From: Escherichia coli
Lineage (GTDB): Bacteria; Pseudomonadota; Gammaproteobacteria; Enterobacterales; Enterobacteriaceae
DNA: 64,000 nucleotides
Assembly (NCBI RefSeq): GCF_965641715.1
Contig: NZ_OZ282453.1
Reading direction: 5' to 3' (one strand)
Shown: piece after piece, positions 4,708-8,794 of the stretch
Layout: every line of letters begins with the position of its first letter
Numbering within the stretch: the first letter of the stretch is position 1
The notes under the pieces: generated by a model
Told to the model about the DNA's origin: nothing
Database searches by the model: none
Seen by the model: the letters and a program-made list of their open reading frames with translations, nothing else
Position numbers and translations under genes: made by a program

Positions 4708-5418
4708 ATGACAAACGATTTATATATTAACGGTAAAAAGGTTGATAGCTTCGGTGACTGGTCGCCACAGACTGAACATCCAGCTATCACTATTCAGCGC
4801 AAAGAACACGATGAAAGAATTGCACTTGAGCAAGAAATCCGAATGTCACCAAAGGTAATTTCCTTTGTGGCTCCTGAGCCTCAAGATATGCCGGATATTT
4901 GCAAAACTGAAGCATTGCTTGAGCTTGAAAAGAAATTTTACCCAGCTTTAAAAGCACAGCGTCTTAAACTAGATGACGCTTACAGTAAAGTTACCCTGAT
5001 GCAATCAGCTATTGAGCCATCAGAATTTGAGATTCAGGATGAATTGTCACAGAAACCATTTGTCTATTACCAATATGAAGACAATGATGGTTTTGGTACT
5101 TTTCCTGAGAATATCCCAGACGTGATTAATAATCCGATGGATGGATATCGAATTGTGAAGATGGTTAAGGCATCAAGAGGTGCTGGTCAGTTTATTTACA
5201 TGACTAATAAGAGCGATGAAGAACTCGCTGAACTTGCTAGACAGAACATCTTGGCATCACGTAACAAGCAGCTTGATAATGTTAAGTTGTATCTCTCAAG
5301 AGAGCTTCAGGCTATGAAAGACCTTGTGAAAGAATATGAAGATGCTAAGAAGATTGCTATGCAAGCCGATATTGAGCAGTTAGTGAAGATTTCTAGCAAA
5401 TATGCAAAGGCTATTTAA
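4708..5418 (+). CDS. Hypothetical phage protein (236 aa), charged with coiled-coil-like C-terminus
   Basis: GAGGAAG RBS; first gene of a co-directional module ending at 8794. Confidence 0.5.
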   Translation: MTNDLYINGKKVDSFGDWSPQTEHPAITIQRKEHDERIALEQEIRMSPKVISFVAPEPQDMPDICKTEALLELEKKFYPALKAQRLKLDDAYSKVTLMQSAIEPSEFEIQDELSQKPFVYYQYEDNDGFGTFPENIPDVINNPMDGYRIVKMVKASRGAGQFIYMTNKSDEELAELARQNILASRNKQLDNVKLYLSRELQAMKDLVKEYEDAKKIAMQADIEQLVKISSKYAKAI

Positions 5419-5437
5419 TTATGATGTGAGGTGAAGA

Positions 5438-5653
5438 ATGATTGATTTAACTGAACGCTATGAAGTTATTAAGTCTGTTTGTGAGAACTTAAAGCTTCAG
5501 ACTAAACCAAAGCTACGAATTAAAAATCAGCATCAAGTTATCACCTCACACAAACCAAAGGTTAGAAGGATTCCTTCATGGTGTATTGACCGTGTTCCTG
5601 CTGATGCTCAATTAATTGGTGAGTCTGGTTCTTACACTTATATCCTTCATTAA
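5438..5653 (+). CDS. Hypothetical phage protein (71 aa)
   Basis: GAGGTGAAG RBS; immediately upstream of the tape-measure-like gene. Confidence 0.45.
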   Translation: MIDLTERYEVIKSVCENLKLQTKPKLRIKNQHQVITSHKPKVRRIPSWCIDRVPADAQLIGESGSYTYILH

Positions 5654-5734
5654 AAATTACAAAGGGGAGAGATTAGCCTTAATTGGTTAGTCTTTCCCTT
5701 TTTCGTATATGAACACTTAAGAGGTGAAACATGA

Positions 5735-7864
5735 ATGGCACAGTTTAAAGTTGATAGTTTTATCGTTGAGCTAGGCTTCAGCGAGAACGTTATTAAGGGC
5801 TTGCAAAGAGTTGAAAAGGCAGCTTTGCAGTCAGCACAAAGAATTGAGCGTAATTTGAATAGAGCGTTTAAGGTCGATACCAAGCAACTTGACAGCAATT
5901 TAACGGCTTCTTTGAAGTCAATGGAAGGAAAAATTAATAAGACCTTTGACCGTCTGGAAGCTAGAGCAAAAAATACTAAAGCTTTCCAGTTTACCACCAG
6001 ATTTAATGACACTGTTAATCCTCCAAAACAACCGAGACAGCCACGAATTAGCGGCAACAGAGCAATCACAGCAGCTTACTCAGCGAATATGAGCAAGTTA
6101 AAGGGCTTTGACCCTATTTTGCAGAAATACATCAAATCTCAGTTTTACGGGCTATCTGCTAAAGCTGGGTCAATGGATAACACCAAGTTTAATGAAGCCC
6201 TTGCTAAACTAAATTCAAGTGTAAGAGAAGCAATTGCTAAAGCTAAAGGTCATACATCCACCAGCATTAACGGTGACAGAGCAGCTAATAGTCTTGATAA
6301 CCTGTCTTCAGCGGCGGTTAAAACAGCAGGTGCATTTATCTCAATGCAGGCTGTATTAGCCAGTTATCAGAAGATTATGGAGGTTGGTTTACAGCGTGCA
6401 AGTGCTGAGCGTTCAATTGATTTCGTATTTGATAAAGATGCAGGTCAGGTAAAAGAGTTCACAAAGTCATTAGCTCAAACAACGGGTTTAGATATCGCTG
6501 AACTGCAATCACAGTTTGCTGGTTTCGGTGCTTCAGCTAAAGAGTCTATGGGTATTCAAGGTTCTGAAGAGCTTTTTAGAAATATGATTGGCTATGCTCG
6601 TTTAATGGGTCGAAGTGAAGAAGAGATTAAGCGAGCACTGACAGCATTATCACAGATGGCTGGTAAGGGTCAGGTTATGGCTGAAGAGCTTAAGGGGCAA
6701 CTAGCTGAAGCTGTTCCTGGTATGGTTCAGGTATTCGCTAAAGCAACCGGAAAGAGTGAACAGGAATTATTTGATGCCATGAAGAAGGGGGCTTTAAAAT
6801 CTGCCGATACTCTTCAGAAGGTCACTCAGGAACTGAATAGACAAATCACCGCTAAAGGTGGCTGGAAAGCTATTTCAGAAAGTACACAGGCACAACTAGG
6901 GAACTTGAAAAACTCTTGGAATACCACGCTTGACAGTATTTTCAGAGGTTCTGAAGATGGTTTACAGGACTTCACAAGAAGCTTAACCAATCTTCTAAAC
7001 GCTCTTGGTGGAACTGGTAAAACATTAGGTGAAAGTTTTGGTAGCTTGATGAGCGATATGTCACATGGTATCGATTCATTGACTGATATCTCTTACAGGG
7101 TACGAGGTTTCTTTGATGAGGTGACATTAGCTTACCGTTCACTAAATGACACTCAGAAAAAAATTGTTGATGGTTTATCTGATGGGTTAATTGATGGTTT
7201 GAAAATGCTTGCCGTAGCTGTTACTGCTCAAAAGGCTGCAAATGTAGCTGGAGGCTTGTTAAACCTTGCAAACGCTGTTACTTCATTCGGTGACGCTGTT
7301 AATAAAGCTAAAGCTGGCAAGGCTGGTTCTTCAGGTGGTGCGCTAAGTAAAGTCGGTAGAGTTGTCCTTTATGCTGAGTTGGTAAACTTTGCTCTTGATA
7401 ATTTAAACCCTGAAGCAGCTAAGAATCCGAACTTACATCAATCAGGTATTGGAACAGAGACAAACTTCAACCCTGAATACAAAGGCGATTCTACACCAAA
7501 CCAAATTAATGATGGATGGGCTAAGATTGGTAGTTCTATCGCTGACTGGTTTAATGGTGCGGCTAATAAAATTGCTAACTTCCAAGAGCCAATGAGTAAC
7601 CTTGTTAATAACACACAATCAACTCCACCAGCTATTACAGGTGACATGGTTAATAGCAATGCTCAACTTGCAATGGCTATTAGTGAACTATCACGTAAGG
7701 TTGATGCTTTAACAGCAGAATCTAAGAAGCCCTTGTCACTTAATATCAAAGGTGAAGCAATTGTTAGACCGGATGAACCAGCTTTCTTTACTTTCAATCA
7801 ATCAGCTAATGACCAGTTCACGCAGGATATGCTCTTAAGTTCAAGCTATCCAGAGGAAGAATGA
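5735..7864 (+). CDS. Phage tail tape-measure-like protein (709 aa)
   Basis: Central segment ALSQMAGKGQVMAEELKGQLAEAVPGMVQVFAKATGKSEQELFDAMKKG matches the conserved core of tape-measure proteins; alpha-helical, Gly/Ala-rich. Confidence 0.6.
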   Translation: MAQFKVDSFIVELGFSENVIKGLQRVEKAALQSAQRIERNLNRAFKVDTKQLDSNLTASLKSMEGKINKTFDRLEARAKNTKAFQFTTRFNDTVNPPKQPRQPRISGNRAITAAYSANMSKLKGFDPILQKYIKSQFYGLSAKAGSMDNTKFNEALAKLNSSVREAIAKAKGHTSTSINGDRAANSLDNLSSAAVKTAGAFISMQAVLASYQKIMEVGLQRASAERSIDFVFDKDAGQVKEFTKSLAQTTGLDIAELQSQFAGFGASAKESMGIQGSEELFRNMIGYARLMGRSEEEIKRALTALSQMAGKGQVMAEELKGQLAEAVPGMVQVFAKATGKSEQELFDAMKKGALKSADTLQKVTQELNRQITAKGGWKAISESTQAQLGNLKNSWNTTLDSIFRGSEDGLQDFTRSLTNLLNALGGTGKTLGESFGSLMSDMSHGIDSLTDISYRVRGFFDEVTLAYRSLNDTQKKIVDGLSDGLIDGLKMLAVAVTAQKAANVAGGLLNLANAVTSFGDAVNKAKAGKAGSSGGALSKVGRVVLYAELVNFALDNLNPEAAKNPNLHQSGIGTETNFNPEYKGDSTPNQINDGWAKIGSSIADWFNGAANKIANFQEPMSNLVNNTQSTPPAITGDMVNSNAQLAMAISELSRKVDALTAESKKPLSLNIKGEAIVRPDEPAFFTFNQSANDQFTQDMLLSSSYPEEE

Positions 7865-8020
7865 TTTAACGGTGTTCTACGTGAATAAAGCAAAGTTAAT
7901 ACCCACACCAAAAATTATTTTTCACGTAGCTCACGCTTAACAGAGAAAATACATATATATCAAAGGCTTGGTTAAAAATGATTAAAATACACTAAGCCTT
8001 TGAAATCAAAGGAGAATTTA

Positions 8021-8794
8021 ATGATTTTTAGCAATCAAATCCGCTACAGTGGCAAAGATGGCATCTATTTCCACTTAAGAGATAATGTAGATGCCTTCTT
8101 AACCTTATCAGCAACTGAAAACATGGAATTTGACAGTCCTATGCAGGTGACTACACAGAACATGCAATCAGGGCAAACCGTCACAGATAATGTGCAAAGA
8201 GCACCCAGAACAATCACTATTAGTGGTGTCGTTGTAGTTGGCTATGAAGGAAGCTTATTATTAACTCGTCAGGGTCAATTAGTAGAAAACTTCATTGACA
8301 CTCTTGAAAGCTGGAGAGACCAGAAACAAATTATTTCAGTGATTTGTAAAGATGGTATCAAGATTGATGACTCAATTATTACCAACTTTAAAGCCTCTAA
8401 AGATGTTACTATCTCTAACGGTCTTCGTATCCAGCTAACTTTTCAGGAAATTAACTTCAAAGCCATTGTAGGGCAAACTGATGTTTCAGCAGCTACTGGC
8501 AAAACTGCTACCACTAATGATGGTGGTGCTACCAGTAAAAAGAATGCGGGTAACGTGACTACTGAACGCAATAACGCACCTATGTTGATGTGTCAGGAAC
8601 TGTATAGCTACTCAGCATCTGAGCTATCTGATGAAGCGCTAAGGGTCCGTAGCAATTGCTCTAAAAATGTCACGGTGAAAGATGGTGTAAGCACCTTCAC
8701 AGCCTCAGCTAATGAGCAGGCTTCAAAAGTGCTTAAGTCGGGTAATGCTTTACGGAAGTTTAGTGTGAATCCGAATAAGAAGGGCACTTATTGA
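8021..8794 (+). CDS. Hypothetical phage protein (257 aa), possibly tail-associated
   Basis: ATG at 8021 with AAGGAG RBS (the track ORF starts at an upstream TTG); follows the tape-measure-like gene. Confidence 0.5.

Follow-up and report, generated by a model that had tools for sequence, protein, structure and literature searches.

A probable satellite-like island of Felix O1-like myophages in Escherichia coli carries its own tape measure and tube initiator genes

The stretch of Escherichia coli DNA considered here (64,000 nt of contig NZ_OZ282453.1, assembly GCF_965641715.1; hereafter the window) holds, at positions 4708-8794, four co-directional open reading frames (ORFs) adjoining a recombinase gene. 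They encode proteins of 236 aa (p236, 4708-5418, + strand), 71 aa (p71b, 5438-5653, +), 709 aa (tape measure protein, TMP, 5735-7864, +) and 257 aa (tube initiator, TI, 8021-8794, +), the last of which starts either at this ATG, provided with a GGAG ribosome-binding site, or at a TTG at 8000, for 264 aa. The recombinase ORF (8814-10457, −, 547 aa) is convergent with this tail module. An original prediction had described the same four-gene layout, which is present as claimed, and had left three options for it: a degraded tail module, an unusual phage gene order, or a satellite-like element carrying a tail-length determinant. Our analysis supports the third option and rejects the other two. The four genes are probably the tail module of an approximately 11-kb satellite-like integrative element of Felix O1-like (Ounavirinae) myophages, with which it would make chimeric tails.

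All island ORFs were searched against the profiles of Pfam, PHROGs and NCBIfam (the profile libraries below), with the curated thresholds of Pfam and NCBIfam as cut-offs. The 709-aa protein matched PF20155 (TMP_3; 73.1 bits, cut-off 41), TIGR02675 (49.8 bits, cut-off 21.35) and PHROG 4036, "tail length tape measure protein" (2e-82), as well as the TMP chain of PDB entry 9ndy (9ndy_F, gp017; 2e-67). Its gene lies directly upstream of a hub-complex gene, that of TI, and its length compares with 735-742 aa in Felixounavirus. By these matches the protein falls in a tail protein family and is a true TMP, as originally proposed. Identity to the Felix O1-like phage protein is about 31% overall and very unevenly spread: the opening 30 columns of the alignment reach 72% and a block of the TMP_3 core (30 columns, 361-390) 71%, against 28-48% in the neighbouring blocks and 7-36% outside conserved blocks. 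The phage-like parts are aa 1-45 and the last ~12 aa, where the C-terminal LLSSSYPEEE is identical, and the body between them is island-specific.

A comparable mosaic is found in the next gene. Its 257-aa product matched the Pfam family Dit_like (PF21821; 72.2 bits, cut-off 24.2) and chain 9ndy_A, "tube initiator protein gp018" (8e-121), and judged by these homologues it is a baseplate tube initiator. Its tube-like domain (residues 13-190) shares 97% identity with gp119 of phage garuso. In DNA sequence the domain is 90.6-91.7% identical to that of two phages whose mutual identity is 91.7%, and since the island-to-phage distance equals the phage-to-phage distance, the island copy lies inside the phage gene pool. 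Beyond the domain come ~60 island-specific residues and then a phage-like last ~10 aa.

When the island was compared with 50,697 phage records, matches came from Ounavirinae alone, virulent myophages of ~86 kb, and were confined to the TMP and TI genes plus short non-coding segments; tblastn against a complete Felixounavirus genome also gave similarity in TMP and TI alone. In the Felixounavirus tail module (chaperones, TMP, TI and hub; Bas63/JohannRWettstein, garuso and NBEco005) the homologous TMP and TI genes stand in the same order and overlap, whereas the island holds these two virion genes only, parts them by a spacer of 135-160 nt and has upstream genes unrelated to the phage chaperones. 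Likeness to Felixounavirus resides in the TI tube-like domain (~91% DNA identity) and in the conserved TMP termini, in contrast to a TMP body that is ~30% identical and a TI C-terminal extension specific to the island. PDB 9ndy belongs to a cryo-electron microscopy study of phage Bas63 (PMC12609058), in which the TI hexamer bridges the three-fold hub to the six-fold tube, with a C-terminal extension of ~100 residues through the baseplate, and the last 25 residues of the TMP touch the hub and the puncturing apparatus (PMC12609058). Considering these contacts, the conserved TI tube-like domain and the TMP C-terminus, whose phage-like last ~12 residues fall within that contacting stretch, are the parts that make the described hub and tube contacts.

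Among related islands the tail genes vary in a modular way. Their TMPs measure 688-728 aa, near yet always below the 735-742 aa of the phages. Three body types can be told apart, with 42-52% identity between them. Two N-terminal TMP alleles reassort independently of these body types, and the type B extension of TI is found together with the type B body of TMP. The only phage-like DNA of the tonB-type island is the first 120-135 nt of its TMP gene, which are 92-93% identical to Sf17/Mordin-type phages.

The tail module lies within an integrative island of ~11-11.6 kb, the right-hand ~10.5 kb of which occupies window positions 1-10539, as delimited by the GC profile and by mapping of the attachment (att) sites attL and attR. 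GC content is ~40% from 1 to ~10,540 and ~52% in the remaining window, where E. coli core genes (wrbA, yccJ, agp, yccE, cbpA, cbpM) follow; the window starts ~985 bp inside the element. Strain 26561 has the whole element between ymdF and wrbA, and from att site to att site it spans 11,007 bp there and 11,592 bp in strain T2. Insertion is into the 5′ end of wrbA, at codons 5-8, by the large serine recombinase. The native wrbA start (ATGGCTAAAGTTCTGGTGCTTT, MAKVLVL) is left at the far end of the element, beside ymdF, in strain 26561 (attL), and the crossover core GTGCTTT, at 10533-10539 in attR, is common to attL and attR. What remains at the near end is a hybrid wrbA (10509-11114, +), its N-terminus island-encoded (MSVKARIL... 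in place of the native MAKVLVLYY) and the remainder native. Comparison of attL with attR indicates that the island supplies the ribosome-binding site and start codon (10494-10539, +), so that wrbA stays intact; the repair was noted both here and in L001 (13994-14017). A tonB-inserted relative shows a like 5′-end insertion.

The 547-aa protein encoded at 8814-10457 (−) matched the Pfam families Resolvase and Recombinase above their cut-offs and Zn_ribbon_recom slightly under its own (22.1 bits against 25.3). It is 99-100% identical in other wrbA-inserted islands and 99.6% identical in a circular metagenome contig (L028). This is the island integrase; the adjacency that the original prediction reported holds, the "integrase" being a large serine recombinase and not a tyrosine integrase.

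Excised forms were found in public assemblies. A Logan contig from SRR22802630 (L016; 11,280 bp) has a 27-bp terminal overlap that closes it to a circle of 11,253 bp, and it joins the right end to the left end of the integrated copy via a 13-bp core; a second sample, ERR11042405, yielded an identical permuted contig. An ENA metagenome scaffold of 11,068 bp, from a third lineage, crosses the junction between recombinase and left end. Excision-junction contigs outside the type of the window are L016, L018 and L024. For the window's own type, attP was predicted from attL and attR as ACTAGTGCTTTTACATAGCTAAACACG (27 nt), and this sequence is found in 3 metagenome contigs, one of them, of 11,233 bp, with a 55-bp terminal overlap and a recombinase 99.6% identical to that of the window. 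Precise circles in independent assemblies point to an active, discrete mobile unit of 11.0-11.6 kb, and we regard this anatomy and mobility as close to certain. The metagenome contig OOBX01000469.1 (L029; 23,009 bp, ~2x island length, of which 6 kb were read), holds a wrbA-type attP junction.

Megablast matches to the element occur in 558 of 5,426 complete E. coli genomes (~10%), every one of them chromosomal. The plasmid collection returned no match, and the element is therefore not a stable plasmid. The same gene order is found in E. coli, E. albertii, Salmonella and other enterobacteria. It opens with a gene-free left region, optionally accompanied by a Dam methyltransferase-helix-turn-helix (Dam-HTH) gene and a small resolvase; after it come p185, p92, small genes that vary, p109 and a spacer, followed by p236, p71b, TMP, TI and the convergent serine recombinase. 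The p236 family comprises more than 3,000 clusters at 90% identity in E. coli, E. albertii and Salmonella, yet a set of 1.84 billion proteins yields no more than 18 representatives at 50% identity, which marks the family as narrow and island-specific; even distant members (25-41% identity) keep the same island gene order. At least three recombinase/att types are present among the islands, the recombinases of distant islands being 30-35% identical, and other insertion sites are the tonB 5′ end and a position between an MFS-family (major facilitator superfamily) gene and a lipid A acyltransferase gene. Pairwise ratios of nonsynonymous to synonymous substitution rates (dN/dS) are 0.27 for p236, 0.24 for p71b and 0.28 for TMP, and all ORFs are intact: purifying selection acts on the genes of the island.

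Neither the profile libraries nor comparison with relatives revealed, anywhere in the complete element, genes for capsid, terminase, portal, sheath, tube, wedge, fibre or lysis, and Pfam and PHROG scans of the island gave no pseudogenised head or tail remnants. The original prediction had noted that tube, sheath, fibre and lysis genes were not adjacent to the module; the same holds for the whole island, and no conventional full tail module lies anywhere in it. An unusual phage gene order is hence rejected, given an att-bounded complete element of 11.0-11.6 kb that has no further virion genes. The idea of a degraded tail module fares no better, as hundreds of genomes from several species share the compact order, with ORFs intact and dN/dS of ~0.25-0.3. 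A satellite-like element with a tail-length determinant is favoured by the excised circles, the Felix O1-like mosaicism and the precedent of Vibrio cholerae islands discussed below.

Upstream of TMP, p236 (4708-5418, +) is a coiled-coil, island-specific protein encoded at the position that the tape-measure chaperone takes in the phage. It has no Pfam, PHROG or NCBIfam match, and its AlphaFold2 model (predicted local distance difference test score 80) has generic coiled coils as its only fold matches. In many genomes the RefSeq/PGAP label of p236 is "transposase", a label unsupported by Pfam, NCBIfam, PHROGs or fold comparison. The second protein, p71b (5438-5653, +), is small, basic and island-specific; it lies directly 5′ of TMP, is present in all lineages and has no Pfam match. 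We considered both as tail assembly chaperones, and BLASTP and hhalign comparisons with phage gp116/gp117 came back empty. A programmed frameshift, for which the original prediction had proposed a search in 5438-5735, is not borne out: the frames do not overlap, stops stand between the ORFs and there is no in-frame slippery site in that interval. Non-overlapping frames and intervening stops likewise rule out a frameshift joining p236, p71b and the TMP gene.

Ahead of the module lies a promoter and leader region (4198-4496, +). The sigma70-type promoter (TTGACA-17-TG-CATAAT; 4212-4240, +) is near-invariant in all lineages, and its block is near-identical, with scattered substitutions, even in the distant island L014, where the p236 homologue is 40% identical. 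Downstream of it lie a leader of ~230 nt, in which hairpins are conserved, and a terminator-like hairpin (4474-4496) just ahead of p236. Lying between promoter and p236, this hairpin suggests that the tail module is conditionally expressed. The leader may act as a small RNA or be controlled through antitermination. As a small RNA directed at helper tail-gene mRNAs it found no support, a crude RNAduplex ranking against the start regions of NBEco005 giving no enrichment, and an Rfam search of the island returned no match. Counts of sigma70-like sites and terminators across the island were not above those in shuffled sequences, and weight was given solely to conserved promoter and terminator sites.

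Genes take up little of the left ~2.3 kb of the window, which contains an inverted CTGTTAA(G) cluster (340-470; sites at 353(−), 389(−) and 462(+)). Four CTGTTAA sites with a spacing of 35, 43-46 and 35 are kept between L004 (2787-2903) and distant L014 (6799-6912). In phage NBEco005 the degenerate motif YTGTTAR occurs at 15.7/kb in the gene-free region versus 0.5/kb elsewhere, and in the left region of the island it is moderately enriched, above core. We consider the cluster likely to consist of binding sites for an island or helper protein; it is a candidate protein-binding, replication origin (ori) or packaging (pac) region. In the same part of the island, a 68-nt phage-like segment (1453-1520, +) is 91% identical to its phage counterpart, with 51 nt 100% identical to NBEco004; the counterpart is hairpin-forming, and two copies of it lie 651 bp apart within the gene-free 2.3 kb of NBEco005. 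This segment may be a mobile mini-element or a pac- or ori-related site. Left-end copies of a repeated NBEco005 intergenic element (43.3-45.1 kb; a conserved 30-nt head, then ACC-periodic repeats) are seen in L003 (2785-2857) and L006 (1770-1848). In such short stretches and in the style of its motifs the left region resembles the gene-free region of the phage, which adds to the link with the helper. Between the Dam-HTH gene and a membrane ORF the window also has an 83-nt direct repeat (1575-1751), in two copies that are 90% identical with a 94-nt period.

As for the other genes, the Dam-HTH gene (597-1265, +) encodes a 222-aa Dam-type N6-adenine methyltransferase fused to a resolvase-type HTH (Pfam PF05869, Dam, and HTH_7) and is present in only some island variants. 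No island ORF matched replication or defence families in the profile libraries or PADLOC, and PADLOC-DB v2 listed no defence system, its sole match being an orphan-methyltransferase hit for the Dam-HTH protein. A hydrophobic 74-aa ORF (1872-2096, −), conserved among islands, may work as an effector at the membrane, for example in exclusion, as a toxin or in lysis; its own promoter-like site (2216-2187, −) is divergent from the p185 operon. That operon of orphan genes (2223-4121, +) stands behind a promoter-like site at 2223-2251 and comprises p185 (2300-2857), p92 (2858-3136), p71a (3136-3351), an HNH endonuclease gene (3348-3635) and p109 (3792-4121), all on the + strand. p185, p92 and p109 are conserved across island lineages, and the model of p185 has no significant fold match; p71a and the HNH gene are variable among islands. 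The HNH gene and the neighbouring 71-aa ORF (3136-3635) are present, absent or replaced in otherwise collinear islands and behave like a mobile homing cassette. Outside this window, a small resolvase/invertase-type serine recombinase (182-191 aa) is found near the left end of many relatives (2002-2550 in L003, 5621-6196 in L014, 5053-5622 in L017), where it might resolve multimers or invert a segment.

The closest precedent for such a module is found in Vibrio cholerae. Mathur et al. reported that phage-inducible chromosomal island-like elements (PLEs) encode a TMP and a chaperone, some of them a hub protein as well, which replace those of phage ICP1 in PLE virions (PMC11838301). The PLE tail proteins shorten the tail by 10 nm, deletion of the PLE TMP gene cuts transduction by 96-99.9%, and PLEs are stated to be the first satellite family known to do this (PMC11838301). 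By analogy, we propose that infection by a Felix O1-like phage would trigger excision and expression of the island. Its TMP and TI would then be made, possibly aided by p236 and p71b as dedicated chaperones, dock in the baseplate hub of the helper and nucleate helper tube and sheath; because TI keeps the phage tube-like domain and TMP keeps the phage ends, both should be able to dock there. The outcome would be chimeric tails with an island-specific core. Tail assembly would be diverted from the phage, and fewer pure phage tails would amount to interference and a population-level defence. Most likely the chimeric tails would also equip particles carrying island DNA. Taken as a whole, we consider this reading, satellite tail module and chimeric tails included, somewhat better than an even bet.

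Several observations weigh on the other side. No replication initiator or replicase, small terminase, capsid-size or packaging gene was recognised in the island by the profile libraries, PADLOC or a fold search. At 11 kb the genome would fill only a small fraction of the helper capsid, which holds ~86-90 kb, and no gene for size redirection is evident. p236 and p71b have no sequence, profile or fold similarity to chaperones. The second N-terminal TMP allele has no DNA match in any sequenced phage, and the 68-nt segment is limited to three or four phages and, among the islands examined, to this island. In IMG/VR a protein scan recovered island copies only where isolate genomes have predicted prophage regions, and no viral contig there carries the attP pattern. 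Induction, replication, packaging and virion incorporation of island proteins are inferred throughout.

One rival reading takes the island as an instrument of defence and nothing else, its TMP and TI acting as dominant-negative decoys that spoil Felix O1-like tails and so protect neighbours, with the island left unpackaged and spreading rarely by other means. Helper-identical docking segments around divergent bodies would suit a poison-subunit design, the packaging, replication and capsid genes not found in the island would not be needed, and the strongly diversified, reassorting TMP alleles are what an arms race predicts; defences that target tail assembly do exist, e.g. Rta of PLE11 (PMC11838301). 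A decoy, however, would have no need of a TMP that nearly equals the helper's in length, keeps its TMP_3 core intact and has purifying selection acting on its C-terminal half. The efficient site-specific recombinase, at least three att specificities, the precise circles in several datasets and the tightly held size of 11.0-11.6 kb indicate frequent horizontal transfer of the island as a discrete unit, and the same gene set serves transmission in PLE. Thus we find the decoy explanation unlikely, though it deserves a place in the argument. Protection could also act at the entry step in the resident cell, through superinfection exclusion, if constitutively made island TMP or TI kept incoming Felix O1-like phages from forming a channel or injecting DNA. 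TMPs are established as membrane-active and involved in genome injection (cited within PMC12609058), the promoter upstream of the tail module is strong and near-invariant, and the island has a conserved small membrane ORF. Yet the terminator-like hairpin between promoter and module points to conditional expression, the conserved docking segments serve an assembling baseplate and would be superfluous at the membrane, and the mechanism is without precedent, which makes exclusion improbable in our view.

A remnant of a temperate Felix O1-like relative would be a wholly different object, namely the decaying end of a prophage that has kept TMP, the next gene and the integrase. Tail genes do lie beside an integrase at wrbA, a known prophage insertion site, and a TMP body distant from known phages is what a temperate lineage not yet known would leave. 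But the att sites are ~11 kb apart with the same compact content in hundreds of genomes of several species, the element excises as an 11.2-kb circle, no pseudogenised remnants were seen, and no search turned up a temperate Ounavirinae-like prophage with these genes. Intact ORFs and the dN/dS values (~0.27) exclude decay, and we give this origin hardly any credence.

Returning to the satellite with chimeric tails, a bolder form of it can be put forward as a tentative and rather doubtful speculation. Minimalist satellites of Enterobacteriaceae would take the whole Felix O1-like virion and add a tail core alone, their docking ends being kept current by recombination with phages, their genomes packaged as concatemers of ~8 units and their TMP bodies acting as delivery or immunity specificities. 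Eight units of 11.0-11.6 kb make 88-93 kb, compared with 84-90 kb for the helper; a unit of ~1/8 of the helper genome would fit such concatemer packaging.

If confirmed, no satellite other than the Vibrio PLEs would have been shown before this one to manipulate tail assembly, and the host is the one most open to genetics. The island is common, about one in ten complete E. coli genomes matching it, and is also found in Salmonella and E. albertii. Since its presumed helpers, the Felix O1-like phages, are widely used in typing, biocontrol and therapy of Salmonella and E. coli, the island could explain strain-specific failures. The mosaic design marks the parts of TMP and TI that make essential contacts, and the selective incorporation of a satellite TMP into a tail thereby becomes a directly testable question.

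A description of the element was not found in the searchable literature on Ounavirinae, wrbA serine recombinases and satellite tape measures, and an enterobacterial, Ounavirinae-directed, minimal satellite-like island with helper-identical docking ends is most likely undescribed so far. Phage-inducible chromosomal islands (PICIs), capsid-forming PICIs (cf-PICIs) and P4-like satellites are characterised by a tyrosine integrase, AlpA, a primase-replicase, genes for capsid, packaging or size redirection, and temperate helpers. The island resembles them as a small integrated element that would exploit a helper virion and is widespread in E. coli. It differs in its serine-type integrase and in that none of their hallmarks (AlpA, primase-replicase, capsid, terS, Sid/Psu/Delta) was found in it by the profile libraries.

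The likeness to PLEs is closer. Both are small chromosomal islands with a large serine recombinase and a virulent contractile-tailed helper (ICP1 for PLE, presumably Ounavirinae for the island), both carry their own TMP and a hub-complex protein in one cluster, here with TMP and TI homologous to Ounavirinae alone, and in both the TMPs fall into allele groups. PLEs have the small transcript SviR near the module, and the island has a conserved predicted promoter and leader there. The differences are also clear. PLEs measure ~18 kb, versus ~11 kb for the island, and are hosted by Vibrio cholerae with ICP1 as helper, versus Enterobacteriaceae and Ounavirinae. They have a RepA-type initiator, the TcaP capsid scaffold and nuclease genes, none of which was recognised by the profile libraries among the island ORFs. 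PLE chimeric virions have been seen experimentally, whereas the island, set beside PLE by the features described, is known from its sequence alone. The hub-complex gene is that of BhuB in PLE and of the tube initiator in the island, and where PLE encodes a tail chaperone the island has p236 and p71b at the chaperone position without homology. Finally, PLE tail proteins are 19-41% identical to those of ICP1 throughout, whereas the island has segments 90-100% identical to the helper around divergent bodies.

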